A stretch of DNA of 46,993 bases from a virus (lineage: Duplodnaviria; Heunggongvirae; Uroviricota; Caudoviricetes): the IMG/VR virus record IMGVR_UViG_2529293060_000009. One strand, 5' to 3'. Position 1 is the first letter of the stretch, and the number at the start of each line of letters is the position of its first letter. Shown piece after piece: positions 2,305 to 45,506 of the stretch. The translations under genes were made by a program, and so were the position numbers. The notes beneath the pieces were generated by a model, which worked only from the letters and a program-made list of their open reading frames with translations, ran no database searches and had not been told where the DNA came from.

Positions 2305-2620
2305 TATAATAAACTTACTTTTTTATCATTTTTCCACTTTAACAACATTTTGCTCCACTTTTCCACGACCAAACAACTTGAAATCTGGTTAAAATAACAC
2401 GCAACACTATTCTTCTCCCTTGAGTCCGCCCGGAACTCGAAAAACAAACCGAGTTAAAGCCATTTTTCACAAAATCGATTTTGGGTCTCACCAAAATTAC
2501 GGGGTTGCATACGCATTCGTTTATTTTCGAACGTGTACATACAAATATGCACAAAAATAATCATAATTATTTTCTGAGATGCATTATGATATGAACACCA
2601 ATTTCGTATAGAGTCTCACT

Positions 2621-3211
2621 ATGTCTCAAATTTTTGCTTACTGTCGGATATCAACGCTGGATCAGACCACCGAAAATCAACGCCGGGAAATCGAAAGTGC
2701 AGGTTTTAAAATCAAACCTCAGCAAATAATCGAAGAACACATTAGCGGCTCAGCAGCAACCAGTGAGCGTCCTGGTTTTAACCGGTTGCTTGCTCGCCTG
2801 AAATGTGGTGATCAATTGATTGTGACAAAACTGGATCGCCTTGGTTGTAATGCAATGGATATCAGGAAAACAGTGGAACAACTGACCGAAACAGGTATCA
2901 GAGTGCATTGCTTAGCATTGGGGGGCATTGACCTGACCAGTCCAACAGGAAAAATGATGATGCAAGTAATTTCAGCAGTCGCTGAATTTGAACGAGACCT
3001 TTTACTTGAACGCACTCATTCCGGGATAGTAAGAGCCCGCGGCGCAGGGAAACGTTTTGGTCGACCACCTGTGTTAAATGAAGAACAGAAACAGGCGGTA
3101 TTCGAACGAATTAAGTCAGGTGTAAGTATAAGTGCCATTGCCCGGGAATTCAAAACCTCGCGGCAAACCATTTTAAGAGCCAAAGCAAAACTTCAGACAC
3201 CTGACATATAA
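2621..3211 (+). CDS. pin: Serine recombinase, Pin/Gin/Hin-type DNA invertase
   Basis: 196-aa ORF with N-terminal catalytic serine motif (YCRISTLDQ), resolvase core and C-terminal HTH. Near-identical by recollection to PinQ/PinR/PinE. Confidence 0.9.
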
Positions 3212-3308
3212 AAAATAATCTCGGTGTGAGATGCTTTACGTCTTCCAAGCCCCCTTCCTTGCCGTAAATGGAAAGATACATCTAATTATAGAATTTATAT
3301 GTTTTACC

Positions 3309-3884
3309 CTACGGCAGTGCTGGCCATTCAATATCCTGTGCAGTTGACGTATCAACACGGTTCAGCAATACCCGATACTTTTTCCATGCTTCCAGCAACG
3401 AGATTTCTTCCTCCGTTGCAATTTCCAGATCTGCAGCATCCTGAAGCGGCGCAATATGCTCACTGGCTACCTGCATCAGGTTGTTTTTTGTTTCTTCCGC
3501 CTCCCGGATCCGGAACAGTTTTTCTGCTTCCGTATCCTTCACCCAGGCTGTGCCGTTCCACTTCTGAAACTCCCCTTCCGGCGATAACCAGGTAACATTT
3601 TCCGGTAACGGACCGAGTTCAGAAATAAATAACGCGTCGCCGGAAGCCACGTCATAAACCGTTTTACCCCGATGATCTTCAACGAGATGCCACGATGACT
3701 CATCACTGTTGAAAACAGCCACGAAGCCAGCCGGAATATCTGGCGGTGCAATATCGGTACTGTTTGCTGGCAGACCTGTATGAGGCGGAATATATGCATC
3801 ACCTTCACCAATAAATTCATTAGTTCCGGCCAGCAGATTATAAATTTTTATGGTCCGTGGTTGTTCACTCATTCTGAATGCCAT
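3309..3884 (-). CDS. tfa: Tail fiber assembly protein Tfa
   Basis: 191-aa ORF ([31 protein letters not shown]...) nearly identical to my recollection of lambda Tfa. Start overlaps stf stop. Confidence 0.88.
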
Positions 3885-6800
3885 TATGCAAGCCTCACAA
3901 TATAGTTAAATGCGATGTTTTTGACGGTGTTTTCCGCGTTACCAGCAGCGTTAACGGTGATGGTGTGTCCATGTGAACCAATCGCAACGGAGTGCGTATG
4001 AGCACCAATACCGACAGTATGTGCATGTGCGCCTGCGCTTGCAGCAGTGCCGGACAGCGAGTGGGTATGAGCACCATCTGATGATGTCTTCCCTGCATTA
4101 CGAGTCTGGCCACTACCGCTTGTTGTGCTCATAATCCCCGCGCTTAGATTTGAAATCGCGGTATAACCATTAGGGAAAATGCTCGTGTTCGTGCCACCAA
4201 ATGCACCGGAACTCTTGTGTTGGTGCGCACCGGCACTATTTGCGGTCCCGCTAATACTATGGGTATGCGCCCCGGTGTTATTCGTGGATTTGGTTCCGTA
4301 ATCAAACGACGATGTGGTTTTCGTCCCCAAATCCGTACTGGATGCGCTGGCGCTGTGGGTGTGCGATTTAATGCCGTCCTGTTCCTGAGATAATACGGCC
4401 CGACCACTGGCGGGCTTGCCCTTAATCGTCCAGCCACGCATATCAGGGATCACGCCTGACGGATAAGCAACTGCAAGTTTCGGGTATGCAGATTTGTCAA
4501 AAGTCTGCCCCTGCATCAGGGCATAACCAGACGGAACGGTATCTGATGGCCACGGGATTGGTGCACCGACTGGATAAAACTCTGCAGGAGGATGAGCCGA
4601 GGTGTAAAGCTGCGCCCACGGCGACCAGTTTGCGTCGGTCGTATCCCGTCGTGAACGAATAAATGCCGGAGCATGAGCACCGCTTGTACCACTCCAGCCG
4701 ATGAGTAACTCACCTTCGCCAACGGCTGTCATCCCTTTCAGGTGAATGATATTTCCATACGCTGTTGGATATCCGTTGTTATACACCTCGTATAACTCAA
4801 GACCTGCTGCCCCCTGCGTATTGTCTGTCAGCGCGGTTACCCGACCTTTTGAAGCCAGATTAACTGATGATACTGCTGTTCCACCTGACGGTAACGCCCC
4901 GATCTCTGATGCCGTTGGCTTATTTCTGGAGTTATAGTCCCTTCGCCAGCCAGGTGAATAATCTGTTCCGTGATTAATATAGGTAAACTGGGCGTTAGTT
5001 GTTCCACCACCAGTGGAGGTGGTCGGTGTGGTAATGCGGATCGTCATCGCTGACTTTATCCCCATTACTTCAATGACAGCTCCGGCGAGATGAATATTAC
5101 CGCAGTCAGTATCAGTAATGATTTTATTATTGCCATAAGACCAGGAACCCTTGCACATCCAGTATGGATGGTTAAATGCTCCCTGAGAATCCAGCCACTC
5201 GATAAACTGTGCAGTCGTCCAGTTTCCTGTTGTTGTGCTTACTGACCCACCGAAGGCACGGCAGGCACCAATATTTTTCGTAAAGGTATCTTTGCCAGGG
5301 ATATCCGCACCGTTCTGATCTTTCTGCAGACGTTTCTCAGCATTGTCATTGGCTGCTTTTACTGCCTTTGGTGTCGCGGCAAGCGTTTCAGACGTGCTGT
5401 TGGTCGCGCTGCTTAGCTGGATTATCCCTTTCTGTGCTGTCGTTGCATCCTGTGCGGTGTATTTCCCGTTAGCCAGGTCATACGCGGCCTTAACGGCTTT
5501 TGGCGTTGCCGCCAGTGACTCGGAAGTGCTGTTGGTCGCACTGCTGAGCTGTACTATCCCCTTTTTCGTCGTGCTCGCATCCTCAAGCGCCACGGCGGAT
5601 GCAATATCCTCTGCCCGTTTTGCCGCTGTCTCAGCGCGCGTTGCTGCAGATTCCGCCGTACTTTTGCTCTGAGCTGCTGCCGTCGCACTGCCAGCTGCCT
5701 CTGTCGCCTTCGTGGATGCCGTCGTGGCGCTACCCTTCGCTGCTGACGCCTGTCTGGTCGCCTCATCTTTTGAAGCAGACGCAGATGATGCCGATGACGA
5801 CGCCGAACTGGCTGACGATGCGGCAGCCGTTTTTGAGGATTCTGCGCTGGTTTCCGACGCTTTCGCGTTCGTTTCGGATGTCTTCGCTGCGGAAGCAGAC
5901 CTCGCTGCTGCGCTGGCCTGTTCAGTGGCTTCGCCAGCCTTCGTTGTGGCTGTTGAAGCAGACGATGCGGCGCTTTCTGCCGATTTTCCGGCGGCGGTGG
6001 CACTGGCTGAGGCCTGCCCGGCACTTGTTGACGCTGCACTGGCAGACGACGCAGCCGCTGTTTTTGAGCCTGCCGCAGCCGAGGCGCTCTGTCCCGCTGC
6101 CGTTTCAGAAGACCTGGCGTTCGTCTCTGACGTTTTTGCCGCCTTCGCGGAATTTCCTGCCGCTGTTGCCGAGGAAGCTGCGCTACTGGCGCTCGAGGAT
6201 GCGTTCGTTTCTGATGATTTTGCCGCCTCTTTTGAAGCCGCCGCATCCCGGGCTGAGGTGGCAGCTTCTGACGCTTTCGTAGTCGCGGTGGATGCAGAAG
6301 TGGCTGCTGATTGTTGTGACGCTGCAGCATTCGTTTCTGACGTTTTCGCGGCACTGGCACTGGTAGCTGCCGCGCTTTTTGAGGACTCTGCAGCGGCAGC
6401 ACTTTTTGATGCTTCAGTGGCCTTTGTTGATGCCGTTCCTGCGCTGGAAGTCGCTGACTGAGCCGACGACGCGGCCTGTCCGGCTGACGTGCTGGCTGCG
6501 CGTGCTGAGCCTGCAGCATCAGTCGCATGGGTTGCCGCCTCACGGGCTGATGTGCTGGCATCACTGGCTGACTTCTTCGCGGCCGCCGTGTTCTGTGCCA
6601 CCACGGACGCGTTACGCGCCACCTCTTCCACCATCAGCTCAAAACGGCGCAGTGCCTCCGGACGGGCATCATCCTCCGTCATGGCACCGAGAAAATCATT
6701 CAGCGTACCGGGTCGGGAATCTTCATACACTGTGATGGTCCCGGCATGTGACGGCGGGAATCCTTCCACCAACAGAATAACGCTGTACTGACCGTACTCA

Positions 6801-36704: not shown

Positions 36705-36860
36705 TTACTCCTCAGGTTCGTAAGCTGTGAAGACAGCGACCTCCGTCTGGCCGGTTCGGATTCGTACCTCGCAGAGGTCTTTCCTCGTTACCAGTGCCGT
36801 CACTATGACGGTTAAACAGATGACGATCAGGGCGATTAACATCGCCTTTTGCTGCTTCAT
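36705..36860 (-). CDS. hokD: Hok-family type I toxin (HokD/RelF)
   Basis: MKQQKAMLIALIVICLTVIVTALVTRKDLCEVRIRTGQTEVAVFTAYEPEE, identical by recollection to K-12 HokD. Confidence 0.85.
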   Translation of the reverse strand: MKQQKAMLIALIVICLTVIVTALVTRKDLCEVRIRTGQTEVAVFTAYEPEE

Positions 36861-37475
36861 AGCCTGCTTCTCCTTGCCTTTCGGCACGTAAGAGGCTAAC
36901 CTACATGTGTCTAGCATGAAATTGGCCTCAGATTAATGTTAAGCGTCTTGCAGGACGCGTAATGTTAACTGGGGCTTTTCTCTATCTGCCTTTGGTGTTC
37001 ATGCCTGAGGCAGATAGCCTCAAGCACCCGCAGCAATTCTACTTAACTCACGTCACCTCGCCAATATAAAATCAATCAGAAAGGCGATCCGTAAGAACAA
37101 CAGCAAGACAATAAATTGCCATTACAGCCGCAATAGCTAGCGCACATTTGAGAACCAGCACGACAACCTCCTGTATTGGACGTACACCAGTCCTGATAAA
37201 TATGAGGCTGTCTCATCATTGATTCAATATAACTATTGGGTATAGTTTCTGTGATTTTGTTCTGTAGAAATGGAACACAACAACCAGTCTCCACCAGCAC
37301 TTCTTTAAATACGCCAAGTCCGACGCAAGCTAACCTTCTAGTCCGCTTTGAGCGAACTGTGGAAGCTCGCAAATGTTGTTACATCTGATGAAGGCATTAC
37401 TCAAAGGAGGGGATAGTAGTCAACGTGGAGCAGGCCATGTTAGTATTTTTATACAATTCGACTAAGGGAAAAACA

Positions 37476-38345
37476 ATGAGGCTTTACATAATAGGAAATG
37501 GATTTGACATGCGTCATGGCTTACCAACAGGATACAAGCACTTTAAGTCGTATGTAGAAAAAAATGACCAAGATCTATATGACGCGATAGAAGAATACAT
37601 TCCTGCTGGGGACGAGTGGAATGAGTTAGAAAATGCTTTAGGTGAAATTGATTATGAGCTTATCCTTCAAAACAGTGAGATATTTTTGGCTTCATACAAT
37701 ACCGATGATTGGAGCGATGCTTATCATCACGATTACCAATATGAAGTAAATAAAATCACACAAATGCTGTCAGCTCGTTTGAAGGAGCAATTCGCTGATT
37801 GGGTTAAAGGGATTAACATAGCCGATGCTTACAATCCTAAGCAATACATCCCGCCCATACCAAGAGAAAGCATCTATTTTTCATTTAATTATACAAATAC
37901 CTTGCAGCAGATCTATGCCGTTCCAGACGAGCAAATCATACATATTCACGGCAATTGTAGTTACGATGACGATCTCATACTTGGTCATAGTTTTAGGGTG
38001 GAAAAGTCACTAAATCCATATATAGGACCGGATCAAGATACAAGAATAGCAGAGGCATACGACAGAATAAACGAATACTTCGGTAATACATTCAAGCCCA
38101 GCGAAGACATAATTAAAGAAGAAAACGTTTTTTTCTCATCGCTTAAAAATGTGGACGAGGTCATCGTTTTAGGCCACTCGCTCGCCGAAGTTGACGGTGA
38201 ATACTTTACTGAAATAAATAAAAGCATCCAAGAAAATGCTCGATGGATAGTTGCTTTATATAGAGGTGAGAAAAAATCAGGCAGTTTAGAAGATTATGGT
38301 ATCAGAGGCTCAAATATTTCTTACGTACAGTATGAAGATATCTGA
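37476..38345 (+). CDS. AbiH-like abortive-infection family protein (N-terminal IIGNGFD motif)
   Basis: 290-aa low-GC ORF beginning MRLYIIGNGFDMRHGLPTGYKHFKSY, the motif I associate with the Pfam AbiH family. Good RBS (aagggaaaaacaATG). First gene of a two-gene cassette on the opposite strand from its neighbours. Confidence 0.5.
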   Translation: MRLYIIGNGFDMRHGLPTGYKHFKSYVEKNDQDLYDAIEEYIPAGDEWNELENALGEIDYELILQNSEIFLASYNTDDWSDAYHHDYQYEVNKITQMLSARLKEQFADWVKGINIADAYNPKQYIPPIPRESIYFSFNYTNTLQQIYAVPDEQIIHIHGNCSYDDDLILGHSFRVEKSLNPYIGPDQDTRIAEAYDRINEYFGNTFKPSEDIIKEENVFFSSLKNVDEVIVLGHSLAEVDGEYFTEINKSIQENARWIVALYRGEKKSGSLEDYGIRGSNISYVQYEDI

Positions 38346-38428
38346 ATGAGACTTCATATTATAACTATAATTATGTAAAAAAGGCTGGTATTTTATACCT
38401 TGAGGAAAATAGATAAGAGGAATGAGGT

Positions 38429-39826
38429 TTGGTTATGATGAATTATACTGATGAGTCAACTTTTCTTGAAAAGTACAAACCGTTTAGGAAGTTTTGGACA
38501 ATTTTATCACCTCATTATGTATCTTTAATGCATGCACTTGCCAAAATGATAAGGGGAGGGAATCCAATTCAAGAACTACCTTCCAATGATGAGGATTTTC
38601 TTGCAGAGTATGAAACCTGTCTCAAAAATTGGAAAGACTCACAAAAAATCATATCTTTTGAGATTATTATTCGGCTGAGAGATATAAAAAGATTGGAAAC
38701 TGAAAAAAAAGAGCACCATCGAAACAAGGATAAAGAAAATAAAGAAAAGTGTATTGATGAAATAAGTTTAAAAAAATTTGAAATTCTTATTCTTCGCCGT
38801 TGTATTGACTCAATAATTTGGAGCATTCTTGATGAAGAACACTCTAGTTTGCGGCGTTTACCTATTAATGCAAGCAATGACAATCTATCAGAAGATAACA
38901 TAATTGATTCTATGGTCGCAGCCGATCTTATCAACCAGGACAAACACTCCGTAGCGATTGTCTCTGACATGAGCACATTTGTTCATGTGGGAGATTTAGT
39001 CACCTTTAATCTACTGGATGGCTTCCAGCTCGTGGAAGTTAAAACAGGTGAAAAGAATAATGAGCTTTATGAAGCTGCTGAATTTTCTGTTATCTCAGAA
39101 TGTCCGCACTTTGAAGAAAACTTCATTAACAATATGCCTGATAATGATGTTAAGCAATTTAATCGCATAAAAAGGCAAATCATTCGTGGCATGAATGTTC
39201 TGGAGGCGATTAATACTGGCGAGGGCTTTGACAACTTTCATCAGTCTAAAGTTAAAATCAATGAGATAGATCATCCGTCTGAATTTTATACCCACCGCTT
39301 AGTTAAAATGTGGGAGATTATTCGCGGAGGAAAAAATTGGGCAATTGATACTATTGATGAATGTTTGTTCTTAGGTATGTACCGTGATTCTGAAATGGGC
39401 TTTGTTGCCTTCAATGGATGGATGGATAGTCTCGGTATAAAAAGCCCTGTTGTGAATATAAATGATTCATTCTTTGACCCTTTGTCTCGACCATTTATGA
39501 GTTTGCATCTGCCAACTGAAATGCTCTCCGATCTCATGTCGGGACAAATAATCATCGTCATGTGTTTTGACAATGAACTTTTTTTTCACCGTGCTAACAA
39601 AACGTACCCGGGTTTATATCTCCTTAGCGATGCAGCAAGAACAAAGCAGCCATTAGAAAATATTCTTCGTGTTGGTTCACAAGGGATAGCTTCTTACGTA
39701 GATGGGAATACCAGCTTTTTAGGTAATGGTATTGAATCCCGTATCCTTTTCGATCAGCAACGACCCGACAACATTATTGAGTGGAGCTATGCTAGAAGCG
39801 ATCTCAAAAAGCAACATGAAGCATAA
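38429..39826 (+). CDS. Hypothetical 465-aa protein with a PD-(D/E)xK-like nuclease motif, partner of the AbiH-like gene
   Basis: Low-GC ORF 83 bp downstream of the AbiH-like gene, with RBS. Central segment ..SVAIVSDMSTFVHVGDLVTFNLLDGFQLVEVKTG.. fits the D...(D/E)xK pattern of restriction-type nucleases. Confidence 0.4.
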   Translation: MVMMNYTDESTFLEKYKPFRKFWTILSPHYVSLMHALAKMIRGGNPIQELPSNDEDFLAEYETCLKNWKDSQKIISFEIIIRLRDIKRLETEKKEHHRNKDKENKEKCIDEISLKKFEILILRRCIDSIIWSILDEEHSSLRRLPINASNDNLSEDNIIDSMVAADLINQDKHSVAIVSDMSTFVHVGDLVTFNLLDGFQLVEVKTGEKNNELYEAAEFSVISECPHFEENFINNMPDNDVKQFNRIKRQIIRGMNVLEAINTGEGFDNFHQSKVKINEIDHPSEFYTHRLVKMWEIIRGGKNWAIDTIDECLFLGMYRDSEMGFVAFNGWMDSLGIKSPVVNINDSFFDPLSRPFMSLHLPTEMLSDLMSGQIIIVMCFDNELFFHRANKTYPGLYLLSDAARTKQPLENILRVGSQGIASYVDGNTSFLGNGIESRILFDQQRPDNIIEWSYARSDLKKQHEA

Positions 39827-40088: not shown

Positions 40089-40511
40089 TCACTTCAATAA
40101 ATACCGAACATCCCCCTGATAAAACGACAATATGCGCTGCATAACTTCGCTTTTACGACACTCAGTACAAATCATATTATGACGCCTGTCGTAACGACGT
40201 ATTCCTCCATCAGGTAATGACCAGATAAGGTCCGGATCAACCGCAGATGGTTTCTTCAGCTTTGCCCTTGAGAGCTTTTTACGGGCATTTTGCCAGTCCT
40301 TACGCGCCTGTTCAGACGGGAATAACCCGTAACCAGAGTTGTATACATCGCCACTGGCAACCAGCTCTCTGGCCAGAACGTTCATCATATATTTTGTTGC
40401 CCCAGTTTTAGTTTCCAGTTGTCTTAACGTCTCGCGCCCACTCTGGCGTACGAGTTCAACAACCTGCCCTTTAATTTTTTCCCGCTCTTCTTGTGTAAAA
40501 ACTTTTGCCAC
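40089..40511 (-). CDS. Hypothetical early-region protein (possible DNA-binding protein with C-terminal Cys pair)
   Basis: 140-aa basic ORF directly downstream of the replication initiator gene. Confidence 0.4.
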   Translation of the reverse strand: MAKVFTQEEREKIKGQVVELVRQSGRETLRQLETKTGATKYMMNVLARELVASGDVYNSGYGLFPSEQARKDWQNARKKLSRAKLKKPSAVDPDLIWSLPDGGIRRYDRRHNMICTECRKSEVMQRILSFYQGDVRYLLK

Positions 40512-40551: not shown

Positions 40552-41628
40552 TTACCCCCTGAAGCCCGGCGGAATTTCGTTATCCGGTTCAGAAATATGA
40601 TTCACACAACGCTGGTTGTTCGTGCCGCTTACCGGGAGCAACCAGGGGTTCTCAAAATTCCGGTCCGGTCCAAAAAACGTCGTCGCTCGCTGAACAAATT
40701 CCGTTCCCGTTTTCCCGGTAGCCGCCAAGTATCTTGCGTAACGCCTCACGCCATCCAGCATGGCCTCTGGTGGCACCCCCTCGCGTAATCTGGCCTTCCA
40801 GGCACTGAAAGCGGATTTCTTCGGGTTTGCTCCGGCACGCAACGGGTACTCCCGCCAGACCTGTTCGAACACATCCGGATAATCCACTCGTCCCACAGAC
40901 TGCCCGGTGTTTTCCGGGACTACCCGATCGGCTTCCCGCTGAATGGCGGAATCGGCTTCGGGCTGCTGCAGTTGGTGTGATTGCTCCGGCCTTGCGGTCA
41001 TCACCTGCTGCACAGCGCCCGAATCGGCTTTCAGCGCATACGCTGAATCGGCTTCCGGTGTCGTGCCTGCTGGCTGACCAAGATTGACGGTCTGAACATC
41101 CCCTGCCTGGTTCGTGGCGTTTTTTACGCCATGGACCATAGTGTTTTGATCTTCTTGATCTGTATCTTTATCTGTATCTTTATCTGTCGTGACTCGTCGT
41201 GACATGTGCGTGACATTTCGTGACGCGCCGTGACAATCGCCATTTTGTTCCCGCTTTCTTTCCCTCTCTCGCTGCGCCCTCTTGCGCTCTGCAGGAGATT
41301 TTGCGGTTTGCGAAATATTGCCGTTGTCCTCTTTAAGCACCTGGCGTTTTTCCCATCCAGTGATTAAATCACCATCAAGTACCCGCCCCTGCATCGTCTG
41401 CAAAATTGAATCAATCACCTCTTCTGTCACGTCGAGCGCACTTGCCAAATCTTCTGTCGTGACATCAATGTGACCTCGCGTGACATTTCGTGACGCGCTC
41501 ACCAAGAGGTGGATATACACTGCCATCACTGTTGCAATTGGCTGCCCTGACACCCTGGCAATTGTTCGCCACTTAGGGTCATTTGGCATGTCATGCCATA
41601 ATCTGAGCCAGGCGTTAGCCATACTCAC
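40552..41628 (-). CDS. Replication initiation protein (lambda O analog, YdaU-like) containing internal iteron arrays
   Basis: 358-aa ORF in the O position, downstream of the cro-like and ydaT-like genes. Two clusters of 10-11 bp phased cgtgac repeats lie inside the coding sequence. Confidence 0.6.
   Translation of the reverse strand: MSMANAWLRLWHDMPNDPKWRTIARVSGQPIATVMAVYIHLLVSASRNVTRGHIDVTTEDLASALDVTEEVIDSILQTMQGRVLDGDLITGWEKRQVLKEDNGNISQTAKSPAERKRAQRERERKREQNGDCHGASRNVTHMSRRVTTDKDTDKDTDQEDQNTMVHGVKNATNQAGDVQTVNLGQPAGTTPEADSAYALKADSGAVQQVMTARPEQSHQLQQPEADSAIQREADRVVPENTGQSVGRVDYPDVFEQVWREYPLRAGANPKKSAFSAWKARLREGVPPEAMLDGVRRYARYLAATGKTGTEFVQRATTFFGPDRNFENPWLLPVSGTNNQRCVNHISEPDNEIPPGFRG
41188..41234. 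repeat. Iteron cluster 1: five cgtgac repeats phased at 10-11 bp, preceded by a tandem atctgtatcttt duplication
   Basis: Seen directly: cgtgac at 41188, 41198, 41209, 41219 and 41229. Confidence 0.65.
41451..41493. repeat. Iteron cluster 2: four (c)gtgac repeats phased at 10-11 bp, containing a 21-bp exact copy of part of cluster 1
   Basis: gcgtgacatttcgtgacgcgc occurs at both 41207..41227 and 41473..41493. Confidence 0.65.
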
Positions 41629-41693: not shown

Positions 41694-42119
41694 TCAATGC
41701 ACAGCCACAATATTTCCTGCAGGGCCACCACGATTCATCTGGTTGAAACCAGCGATCGCCACTGCGACAAAATCATCAGCGTCTCTCACCAGTCGTTCCC
41801 GCGTCTCCACTAGTTCCCGAAAATAGGCTGAGCTATGACTGCGCATTCGGGCCACCAGCAGAGGTGGCATTGCTTTTTCGATAGCTGGTAACAACGCCTG
41901 AATTTTTTTAACCGCATCAGGGGTGTCTTTCTCCACCCAGCGGAAAATTTTCTGAGTATTGCGAGCCAGGGCTTCCGGATGGCTGTCGTCATACAGTTCC
42001 GGGAACGTCATTCCCAGCTCGAAATACGCTTTGGTAATTTTCGCAGCCGGTACTTTTTCGCCGTCCGGATGCGCCCAGGCATTCATCGCCATGCGGATGT
42101 GTTCATGCTTGATTTTCAT
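41694..42119 (-). CDS. YdaT-like protein (Rac-type early gene)
   Basis: 141-aa ORF beginning MKIKHEHI, like my recollection of K-12 Rac YdaT (140 aa). Position cro-like, ydaT-like, replication gene. Confidence 0.55.
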   Translation of the reverse strand: MKIKHEHIRMAMNAWAHPDGEKVPAAKITKAYFELGMTFPELYDDSHPEALARNTQKIFRWVEKDTPDAVKKIQALLPAIEKAMPPLLVARMRSHSSAYFRELVETRERLVRDADDFVAVAIAGFNQMNRGGPAGNIVAVH

Positions 42120-42370
42120 GAATCAACTCCCATCAGCTTTTTCGTAGTAGTTTTATTCCTGCCAATAGTTAAAATTGCATCGGCAGAAAATAATCCGTTT
42201 GATGCAAGAGCGATTTTTTCAGCGTAATTTGTTTCGCCGGTATATTCTGTGCGAGGCAATTTTCCGTTATCCATCCATTTATAGATTGCTCTTTGGCTGA
42301 CACCACAAACGTCGGCCACAACAGCAACGCGAACAGTTTTGATTACATCTTCAAGTGTTTTCTGGTTCAT
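42116..42370 (-). CDS. Cro/YdaS/DicC-position small HTH regulator
   Basis: 84-aa protein from internal Met with a strong RBS (gagggtgat before ATG) and HTH segment (..VCGVSQRAIYKWMDNGKLP..). Divergent from the repressor gene. Confidence 0.65.
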   Translation of the reverse strand: MNQKTLEDVIKTVRVAVVADVCGVSQRAIYKWMDNGKLPRTEYTGETNYAEKIALASNGLFSADAILTIGRNKTTTKKLMGVDS

Positions 42371-42449
42371 ATCACCCTCACAATGTGAACTTTGAGTACA
42401 TGCCATAACAGAACTGACAGTACATTCAAGAGCGAATATCATTGAACTT

Positions 42450-42869
42450 ATGGTTCATGAAGATAAAGCGCGTAAAGAGTTCGCCAGTAGGCTTGCGCTA
42501 GCCTGTGAAAACGCTGGTTATGAACAACATGGAAGGCAGGCAGAAATTGCCCGTCGAATGAAATTAACACCAAAAGCGGTTAGCAAATGGTTTAATGGCG
42601 AAACAATTCCTCGCCGGGAGAAATTAAGGGAATTAGCAACACTAATAGGAACAACACCAACCTATCTTTTGGGAGAGGATACAGAAGAAAGTGGACAGGT
42701 ACGTTTCTATCAGGAGTTAAATCCAAGACAAAAAATCATCATTGACCTTCTGGACGAGCTCCCTGACAGTGAGACAGATGAACTTTTAAAAACTCTTGAA
42801 GAGAAAAAACAGAAGTACAATGCAATTTACGAAGAGTTAGCACGAAAGAAAAAACAAAAAGCCTCTTAA
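42450..42869 (+). CDS. Prophage repressor, XRE-family HTH (DicA/RacR-like)
   Basis: 139-aa ORF with N-terminal HTH (..QAEIARRMKLTPKAVSKWFNGETIP..) and Lys-rich C-terminus. Divergently transcribed from the cro-like gene and followed by the ydfA-dicF-dicB operon. Confidence 0.7.
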   Translation: MVHEDKARKEFASRLALACENAGYEQHGRQAEIARRMKLTPKAVSKWFNGETIPRREKLRELATLIGTTPTYLLGEDTEESGQVRFYQELNPRQKIIIDLLDELPDSETDELLKTLEEKKQKYNAIYEELARKKKQKAS

Positions 42870-43500: not shown

Positions 43501-43542
43501 TGAACCGCCCCGGTTTTCCGGGAGAGTGTTTTATCTGTGAAC

Positions 43543-44442
43543 TCAGGCTGCCAGACCACCATTTCCGATGGAAGCGTAATATGCCTTTTCCGCTTCTGCC
43601 GGCGGGATATGACCCAGTCGTTCCAGCAACCGTCGGTTATTGTACCAGTCCACCCACGTCAGTGTGGCCAGTTCCACTTCGGCGCGGTTTTTCCAGCTCT
43701 TACGATGTATCACCTCCGCTTTATAAAGTCCGTTGATGCTCTCCGCCATCGCGTTGTCATATGAGTCGCCTGTGCTGCCGGTTGACGCCAGCAACTCTGC
43801 ATCCTTAAGCCGCTGAGTGTATGCCAGCGACACATATTGTGACCCCTTATCTGAGTGATGGATGGTGCCCGACGGGCGACGGGCCCACAGCGCCTGCTCC
43901 AGTGCATCCAGCACGAACGTCGTTTTCATCGACGATGAGACCCGCCAGCCCACAATGACGCCGGCGAACACATCGATGATGAACGCCGCGTAAGCGAAGC
44001 CCTGCCAGGTGCTCACATACGTGAAGTCAGCCACCCACAGCTGGTCGGGGCGTTCTGCCACGAACTGGCGGTTCACCCGGTCACCCGCAGCGGCTTCTTT
44101 CCGGCTGACTGTGGTGCGGACCTTTTTACCCCGGCGCACACCGGCAAGCCCCATCACCTTCATCAGCCGTTCTACTGTGCACCTGGCCACGGTCACCCCC
44201 TCACGCAACAACTGGCGCCAGACCTTGCGCACACCGTACACGCTGTGGTTTTCATCGTACACGCGCTGTATCTCCGGCTTCAGCAGGTCATCACGCTGTG
44301 CCCGCTGACTGCGTTTATCCGGATGCCGTTGATGCGCACGATGCCGGTAATACGTTGACGGGGCGACAGCCAGCTCGTGGCATACCGGTCCGACCCCGTG
44401 CGCACCACGCAGGGTATCCACCAGAGGCGCTATTTTTTCCAC
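43543..44442 (-). CDS. IS629-like transposase OrfB (copy 2)
   Basis: Same as copy 1 OrfB except [10 protein letters not shown] versus [10 protein letters not shown]. Confidence 0.85.
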
Positions 44443-44756
44443 AGGCGGTCGAACTCCGCCTTCGCAAAATACGCGGAAGCCTGGCGCAGGATATCGTTGC
44501 TGCGGCGCAGTTCGCGGTTTTCACGCTCCAGTTCCTTCAGACGCTGACGTTCAGTGGTGCTCAGTCCGCCGTCACCTGCACCGGCATCGCGCTCATACTG
44601 ACGCAGCCAGGTACGCAGGGTCTCAGGCGTACAGCCGATTTTAGGGGCGATGGAGCTGATGGCCGCCCACTGCGAGTCATAGTCATTCTGGCTTTCGATA
44701 ACCATACGAACGGCCCGCTGACGGACCTCAGGGGAAAAGCGCGTATTTTTAGTCAT
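44430..44756 (-). CDS. IS629-like transposase OrfA (copy 2)
   Basis: Identical to copy 1 OrfA. Confidence 0.85.
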
Positions 44757-44813
44757 CCTGTTTACCTCTCTCTCAAGGAGTTTAGTCTCCAGGATTCCCG
44801 GGGCGATTCAAAC

Positions 44814-45009
44814 TGTCGAGACCAAGACCGTAAGTTCACCAATATTCTCACTTGAGCCAGGCGTATTATCAGGTGAAATATGCACCGAGATTTCCAGCGA
44901 ACTGCTTCCGGTAATACGAGAAGCAATTTGCCGTCGCGGTTTGGATGGAAGTTACGATCATGACGTCCTGCAAGTTCTCAGGACAATGGTGACTTCACTG
45001 GGGATTTGA
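44814..45009 (+). pseudogene. 3-prime part of the IS-interrupted ydfB/ydfC-position gene
   Basis: Frame continuity with 43331..43500 after removal of the IS and one target duplication copy; ends ..VLRTMVTSLGI. Confidence 0.5.
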
Positions 45010-45453: not shown

Positions 45454-45506
45454 TTTCTGGTGACGTTTGGCGGTATCAGTTTTACTCCGTGACTGCTCTG
45501 CCGCCG
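45454..45506 (+). ncRNA. dicF: DicF small regulatory RNA
   Basis: tttctggtgacgtttggcggtatcagttttactccgtgactgctctgccgcc followed by a T-run. Matches my recollection of the 53-nt DicF RNA and sits immediately upstream of dicB. Confidence 0.85.

Follow-up and report, generated by a model that had tools for sequence, protein, structure and literature searches.

Why should a phage carry, within the gene that encodes its own replication initiator, two separate arrays of the same short DNA repeat? The question is raised by a stretch of 46,993 nucleotides from a virus of the Caudoviricetes (IMG/VR record IMGVR_UViG_2529293060_000009), which is here called the window. Its replication-initiator gene, on the minus strand, bears one array in the sequence coding for the N-terminal domain of the protein (array A) and another in the sequence coding for the linker between its two domains (array B). 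A previous inspection of the letters of the window, made without database searches (hereafter the sequence-only reading), had proposed these phased iterons inside the initiator gene as a candidate origin of replication (ori). The comparison with homologous genes reported here supports this proposal, the function as an origin being predicted from comparative evidence. In our view, this segment of the initiator's coding sequence probably serves as a bipartite origin of replication.

Two phased arrays in one gene

Array B is composed of five exact copies of CGTGAC on the plus strand (GTCACG in the orientation of the gene), which start at 41188, 41198, 41209, 41219 and 41229, with spacings of 10, 11, 10 and 10 base pairs (bp), just as the sequence-only reading had described them. 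For the other cluster it had counted four copies; four phased hexamers are indeed found in array A, but three of them are exact (41458, 41479 and 41489) and one is a TGTGAC variant (41469-41474), which keeps the 10-11 bp phase. The arrays lie about 230 bp apart and have in common an exact 21-mer, GCGTGACATTTCGTGACGCGC, at 41208-41228 and 41478-41498, for which no shuffle gave a match. This shared repeat had also been noticed, although the offset between its starts is 270 bp and not about 266 bp, and the tandem duplication pointed out in the same reading was recovered as the 12-bp TCTTTATCTGTA, present three times at 41153-41188. The hexamer as such is not enriched in the window, where 26 copies of CGTGAC are observed against 20.8 expected, and the signal therefore resides in clustering and in 10-11 bp phasing: 9 of the 26 matches fall within a single stretch of 310 bp.

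Both arrays are translated. Array A, within the coding sequence of the N-terminal domain (N-domain), encodes the end of a helix (residues 29-49) and the loop that follows it (residues 50-55), whereas array B encodes part of the linker. The peptides obtained (...SASRNVTRGHIDVTT... and ...CHGASRNVTHMSRRVTT...) are similar to each other, in agreement with the earlier remark that the repeats impose VT and SRNVT motifs on the protein.

Conservation and selection at the DNA level

Homologous prophages had been named beforehand as the place where the repeats should be looked for, and both arrays are indeed kept there, at matching positions of the gene in about 24 of the 28 homologues compared. A scan with the N-domain, taking one genome per species, gave 26 loci, which belong to Gamma- and Betaproteobacteria and, in a few cases, to metagenome bins; a phage collection contributed Pseudomonas phage 5399, and the final comparison set comprised 28 genes. 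Arrays of GTCAC occur in 20 of the 28, at about gene nucleotides (nt) 129-160 (four copies) and 387-418 (three to six copies), in members of Escherichia, Rahnella, Serratia, Pseudomonas, Bordetella, Acidovorax, Aquitalea, Chromobacterium and other genera, and most homologues also have an inverted hexamer at gene nt 193. Over all loci, 97 of the core-to-core spacings measure 10 bp and 30 measure 11 bp. When the search was left unbiased as to the motif, a 5-mer phased at 10 or 11 bp and common to the regions of arrays A and B was found in 24 of the 28 genes, compared with 0.07% of the shuffled controls and essentially none in the rest of each gene.

Synonymous sites were compared among 14 genes of the GTCACG type, which show 65-83% nucleotide identity. 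The modal codon accounts for a fraction of 0.99 inside the hexamers and of 0.58 outside them (Mann-Whitney p = 3e-5). The hexamer codons are fixed in 14 of 14 genes (the six-fold-degenerate Ser as TCA, Val as GTC, Thr as ACG, Gly as GGT and His as CAC), whereas amino acids of equal conservation outside the hexamers use many codons and the codons of the spacers between hexamers drift. The inverted copy behaves in the same way, with a GTG codon for its V in 12 of 12 sequences. Apart from this inverted hexamer there is no conservation of synonymous sites between the arrays, hence no conserved sites for host factors were seen there.

Since similar peptides (SRNVT, VT) come from both arrays and these words recur across the family, it could be argued that selection has acted on a peptide motif of the loop and the linker, the periodicity of the DNA being a by-product. 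However, a period of 10-11 bp is not a multiple of three and rotates the reading frame, so that the hexamer is translated in all three frames, as S-R, V-T and G/C-H, and only inside the hexamers are the synonymous positions invariant. Moreover, the peptide of array A forms a loop of low model confidence that tolerates insertions of iteron size, and that of array B falls in a disordered linker. Reading in three frames, together with synonymous sites frozen only in the hexamers, rules out a repeat maintained at the peptide level, an explanation that we hold to be extremely improbable; as judged from codon usage, these comparisons show that the arrays are selected at the DNA level.

The AT-rich tract and the palindrome

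Array B is followed, in the orientation of the gene, by an AT-rich tract that constitutes a candidate DNA-unwinding element. The tract is the GC minimum of the initiator gene (0.37-0.40), has an AT skew of -0.56 to -0.58, is purine-rich on the coding strand and encodes residues 146-161, which belong to the linker (residues 128-243). In all homologues, (A/T)AGATAAAGATA opens the 40 nt past the last hexamer of array B; purines prevail on the coding strand of these 40 nt, whose AT content is 60-82% in every case, against 35-60% for the gene as a whole. GATC (Dam) sites are frequent in the AT-rich tract of the enterobacterial homologues. A scan of viral contigs with the N-domain alignment gave, as its best 80 loci, identical E. 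coli prophages in every case, and only polymorphism within the species was informative: among these otherwise identical prophages (L031-L110), the copy number of GATAAAGATACA varies from about 1.5 to 4, while the arrays stay constant at 4 + 5 copies.

Directly after the AT-rich tract there is an imperfect palindrome. GC-rich hairpins are found at the equivalent place in many homologues, not in all, and a palindrome universal to this position was discarded, as a test for perfect stems gave p <= 0.05 in only about 8 of the 28 loci; the feature is suggestive only. Scans of the region for promoters and terminators returned counts at chance level, the sole promoter-like match within the arrays being made of the repeats themselves, and Rfam gave no match in the initiator gene.

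Joint change of the two arrays and linkage to the N-terminal domain

The hexamer differs among lineages. Four homologues (L018, L022, L024 and L028) have GTAACG and three others (L023, L025 and L029) have CGAACG in place of GTCACG, and in each of the seven the same hexamer is present in both arrays; the inverted copy of L022 is GTTAC, which matches the GTAAC of its arrays. On a wider scale, with the encoded peptide words as a protein-level proxy for the hexamer type, the two arrays have words that agree in 75 of the 85 cluster representatives of the N-domain that could be classified, and no mismatch between GTCACG and CGAACG was seen. These comparisons of homologous genes show that the sequences of the two arrays change together.

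The GTAACG arrays of L018 and L022 are irregularly spaced (8, 10, 18 and 21 bp), and their copies are not all oriented alike. Read in one of its frames, GTAACG contains the stop codon TAA, and coding therefore restricts where the hexamer can be placed; these arrays look like a case of direct conflict between the phasing of binding sites and the reading frame.

The joint change bears on the notion that array A has no function and is a copy of array B, generated by duplication or gene conversion and passively carried since. The exact 21-mer that they share could reflect a recent gene conversion, but array A occupies the same codons in distant genera, in genes of 65-83% nucleotide identity, with frozen synonymous sites and, lineage by lineage, the hexamer type of array B. 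As a neutral relic it would have decayed; the conservation of its position and the joint change of hexamer led us to reject a passive duplicate, which seems to us highly improbable.

Two phages separate the domains of the protein. Pseudomonas phage 5399 (L001) has in common with the family only the N-domain (70% identity), its C-terminal domain (C-domain) being another one, and both arrays are present. Shigella phage 75/02 Stx has in common only the C-domain (64% identity), and shows no GTCAC arrays. The point of domain exchange lies downstream of the AT-rich tract. As read from these genes, the arrays are shown to travel with the N-domain and not with the C-domain, and the predicted origin-recognition module is one that combines with different putative modules for helicase recruitment.

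Each of these phages deserves a further comment. In phage 5399, the stretch 2501-5226 contains the gene with the N-domain and then a gene for a 609-aa (amino acid) primase-helicase with Toprim and DnaB_C domains. In Shigella phage 75/02 Stx (L002, KF766125.2), the unrelated N-domain is accompanied by two clusters of another repeat, AAGGGGCTT, at 2181-2200 and 2436-2455: the sequence coding for the N-domain has two copies, at a distance of 11 bp, and two inverted ones come just before a purine-rich linker and a palindrome. This repeat gives 8 matches against 1.1 expected, a number reached by 0 of 200 shuffles, and the two-cluster design may not be unique to one family.

The initiator protein

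The product of the gene matches PHROG 3729 ('replication initiation protein') from end to end (E 5.5e-258), although it is a 'hypothetical protein' in RefSeq and a 'phage replisome organizer' in other records of NCBI; no Pfam family matches it at E<0.01. We place its start at the ATG at 41622, which has GAGGTG just ahead, instead of the GTG at 41628 where the open reading frame (ORF) mechanically begins. Regarding its distribution, DNA similar to the initiator region was found in 4,049 of 5,426 complete E. coli genomes, and the N-domain family amounts to about 1,000 clusters (50% identity) at E <= 1e-10.

An AlphaFold (AF2) model built from 30 homologues shows a confident N-terminal helical domain (residues 1-87), the disordered linker, with a predicted local distance difference test (pLDDT) score of about 30-35, a confident C-terminal helical domain (residues 244-332, pLDDT 82-95) and a tail. 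The N-domain has, according to a fold test, a winged-helix fold similar to that of the N-terminal domain of DnaD. Its only spot of low confidence (pLDDT <50, residues 48-52) is the loop encoded by array A, and it is at this loop that the homologues have insertions, in steps of iteron size. A conserved basic helix, AERKRAQRERERKRE (41243-41293, residues 110-126), adjoins the array B peptide on its upstream side; across the family its amino acid sequence is conserved, and it could provide added DNA binding or oligomerisation.

The C-domain matches PHROG 1701 ('DnaD-like helicase loader') and PHROG 9327 ('primosomal protein'). It is also found in initiators with an unrelated N-domain, being exchangeable between phages, and presumably recruits a helicase or primosome. 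The protein ends in 13 residues, SEPDNEIPPGFRG, that match the very C-terminal end of DnaT, a primosomal protein of E. coli; a sequence search of the PDB returned the DnaT chains 6aep_A (E 0.0028), 2ru8_A and 9zbt_D, aligned at the chain ends, and the NCBIfam match to DnaT was below threshold. This resemblance suggests that a mimicked DnaT tail may recruit the replication-restart or helicase-loading machinery of the host.

Comparison with known origins

One of the closest layouts is that of phage lambda, whose ori, in the middle of gene O, consists of four iterons in one cluster, an A-rich tract and a palindrome (PMC7466680). The annotation and sequence of lambda indeed show a single cluster of four iterons and a palindrome after the AT-rich tract, and the sequence-only reading was right in considering two clusters a different architecture. 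As in the window, the lambda origin falls mid-gene, in the segment coding for the interdomain linker; its iterons give way to an A- or purine-rich tract on the coding strand and then to the palindrome, and in the early operon the initiator gene is preceded by cro and a cII-like gene. The differences are also clear. The lambda iterons are four 18-bp sites with inverted repeats, spaced 20-24 bp in one cluster, whereas those of the window have a direct 6-bp core, a spacing of 10-11 bp and two clusters. Unlike lambda O, the N-domain of the initiator gives no match to Pfam Phage_rep_O, even at E up to 10. Finally, lambda has a gene for a P-type helicase loader downstream, whereas in the window no P- or DnaC-like gene follows the initiator, the next gene being a DUF977 / Ren-like one.

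A second comparison is offered by phage SPP1, where gp38 binds the repeats of oriL inside gene 38, and a 356-bp oriL fragment suffices for replication in vitro (PMC5737612, PMC6316719). The sequence of gene 38 has about five copies of GAAA(C/A)GACA at intervals of roughly 11 bp, and after them an A-rich tract of tandem repeats in the part coding for the linker. Like the window, SPP1 thus combines short direct repeats within the initiator gene with an adjoining AT-rich unwinding element, and it has a second cluster of repeats, which in SPP1 is bound by the initiator. This second site, oriR, lies about 13 kb away, where gp38 has been proposed to stall forks and lead to concatemeric replication (PMC6316719). 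It differs from array A in being intergenic and in having its own AT-rich tract, whereas array A is coding, has none and is 230 bp from its partner. Homology to the SPP1 initiator, G38P, was considered and set aside (BLASTP E 0.37; hhalign probability 0.2%; both insignificant), and the protein was not filed in that family. For Phage_rep_org_N the score is 16 bits (E 0.01), below the cut-off of 23.3, with the full length of the domain aligned in two divergent members; there is no Phg_2220_C match to the initiator, and two families of 'replisome organizer', PHROG 4880 and 5968, match it with E 4e-6 and 2e-4.

The winged helix is also reminiscent of the DnaD N-terminal domain and of the RepA_N plasmid initiators, but the aligned identity is only 9-12%, and the family of the window is borne by prophages. 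For systems of the DnaD or RepA_N type, we know of no second array inside the gene. Two separated clusters of initiator-binding sites, one at the unwinding site and the other auxiliary or regulatory, are present in incC/incA of P1, in incB/incC of F and in ori/crr of the satellite P4. In iteron plasmids and P4, the repeats are 8-22 bp long and the arrays are non-coding, either flanking the rep gene or located kilobases apart, whereas both arrays of the window are coding sequence of the initiator itself. The Eru replication types described in Stx phages (PMC8044961) were also considered and discarded: their proteins are others, and iterons go unmentioned.

The system of the window differs from lambda and SPP1 in its 6-bp direct core spaced by one helical turn, in a second, conserved array of the same specificity placed in the coding sequence of the DNA-binding domain, in the lack of Phage_rep_O and in the lack of an adjacent helicase loader.

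Genomic surroundings

The features of the locus are collected in Table 1. From the order cI-like, cro-like, YdaT/CII-like and initiator, it follows that the initiator gene occupies the position of lambda O.

Table 1. Features of the initiator locus and neighbouring genes, in window coordinates
Feature	Coordinates	Strand	Remarks
Replication-initiator gene	40552-41622	minus	356 aa + stop; ORF list
N-terminal winged-helix domain (about aa 1-95)	41338-41622	minus	presumed iteron-binding domain
Array A, four phased hexamers (GTCACG x3, GTCACA x1, gene orientation)	41458-41494	minus	codons 43-55
Lone inverted hexamer	41426-41431	plus	codons D-V-T 64-66; about 27 bp downstream of array A (gene orientation)
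Array B, five phased GTCACG	41188-41234	minus	codons 130-145, disordered interdomain linker
Candidate DNA-unwinding element, AT-rich	41139-41187	minus	tandem GATAAAGATACA 12-mers; two GATC sites; encodes DKDTDKDTDQED
Imperfect palindrome, 13-bp stem	41108-41138		adjoins the AT-rich tract
C-terminal helical domain (aa 244-332)	40627-40893	minus	AF2; PHROG 1701, PHROG 9327
C-terminal tail (aa 333-356)	40555-40626	minus	ends SEPDNEIPPGFRG; resembles E. coli DnaT C-terminus
cI-like repressor	42450-42869	plus	
cro-like gene	42116-42442	minus	
YdaT/CII-like gene	41694-42119	minus	
DUF977 / Ren-like gene	40089-40511	minus	next after the initiator

Several elements of the surroundings merit description. 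Two identical copies of an insertion sequence (IS) of the IS3 family (orfA/orfB, with an ALIL frameshift pseudoknot) are located at 32459-33780 and 43501-44822, in direct orientation and 11,042 bp apart. They flank a segment with the replication module, an AbiH gene and the immunity genes, and one of them separates dicF from the cI side of the immunity region. An AT-rich insert (37425-39826) on the downstream side of the DUF977 gene carries two adjacent genes, one for the abortive-infection protein AbiH (Pfam E 8e-69) and the other for a protein of 465 aa that has no match in Pfam or PADLOC; both may form a two-gene defence cassette of the prophage. Rfam matches at the gathering score comprise the DicF small RNA (45455-45506), the sok antitoxin RNA of hok/sok (36855-37029), a 5' thermoregulator of the cspA type (27888-28305) and IS009 (3343-3541). 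The presence of DicF marks a lambdoid prophage of the Qin/dicB type.

A probable bipartite origin and its alternatives

Iterons, unwinding element and palindrome come in the order known from lambda ori and SPP1 oriL. Array B, together with the AT-rich tract, is for this reason probably the unwinding site, an ordinary in-gene origin, and we infer that array A is a second, auxiliary array bound by the initiator. According to this model, monomers of the winged-helix N-domain would bind each GTCACG on one face of the helix, 10-11 bp apart, in both arrays, and the complex assembled on array B would open the adjacent AT-rich tract. Recruitment of the host's helicase or primosome would then fall to the C-domain and the DnaT-like tail, since no P- or DnaC-like gene comes after the initiator. 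As to array A, it would most likely cooperate with array B through looping or through a higher-order nucleoprotein complex, a regulatory role being equally open.

Several observations weigh against the bipartite origin or restrict it. The scan of composition along the gene found no AT-rich tract beside array A. Clear arrays are missing from one homologue (L027), and both linker and arrays from a distant one in a cyanophage (Microcystis phage Mwe-JY07). The homologues are phylogenetically related, and the co-variation of the arrays for this reason probably reflects two or three independent switches of hexamer. A search of the literature found neither a paper on these arrays nor an experiment on binding, unwinding or origin activity for the family, and array A, as read from the sequence, may either promote initiation or restrain it.

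This last point gives room to a possible, though tentative, alternative, in which array B and the AT-rich tract are the origin and array A is a negative or switching element instead of a helper. Three versions of it can be conceived. Bound by the initiator, array A could be a roadblock in the 5' part of its own gene, with feedback on the expression of the initiator; it could be an array for 'handcuffing' in cis or for titration, like incA of P1 or incC of F; or it could be a fork barrier that makes replication unidirectional or switches it from theta to sigma, as proposed for gp38 at oriR of SPP1. The lack of an AT-rich tract next to array A speaks for such an element, as do its specificity and orientation, the same as those of array B, and the conserved single inverted copy that accompanies it. 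Inverted copies are shown by the operator-type sites of the initiators of iteron plasmids. The gene is presumably read from an early promoter under cI and cro, so that autoregulation by the initiator would not take place at that promoter, and the binding of SPP1 gp38 to a second cluster, where forks are proposed to stall, is a further point in favour (PMC6316719). On the other hand, a roadblock would also cut the expression of the early genes downstream; negative control of copy number is typical of plasmids, and the initiator family is almost absent from them, with 11 of 72,556 plasmid records.

The bipartite origin, which we continue to prefer, could also be one instance of something wider. 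A bolder and somewhat more doubtful proposal is that of a general, previously unrecognised design, in which array A, the domain, array B and the unwinding element would make up one inseparable specificity cassette that moves as a unit among mosaic phages, array A having a cis-regulatory job of its own. This job could be that of a fork barrier that sets the direction of replication or triggers the switch from theta to sigma, or that of autoregulation through a roadblock. The two-cluster layout of Shigella phage 75/02 Stx, with its unrelated N-domain, hints that the design arose more than once.

Whichever role array A may have, the comparative data provide a precise, testable map of the predicted origin, with its hexamer, two arrays, unwinding element and palindrome, and at least three natural classes of specificity are available for swaps. 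The locus is also a clean case of binding sites that override the choice of codons, to the point of shaping a loop of the very protein that is predicted to bind them. If array A proves to have its own role, these prophages would offer a compact model of how auxiliary initiator sites control phage replication, and the map bears on predicting which prophages still replicate once induced.

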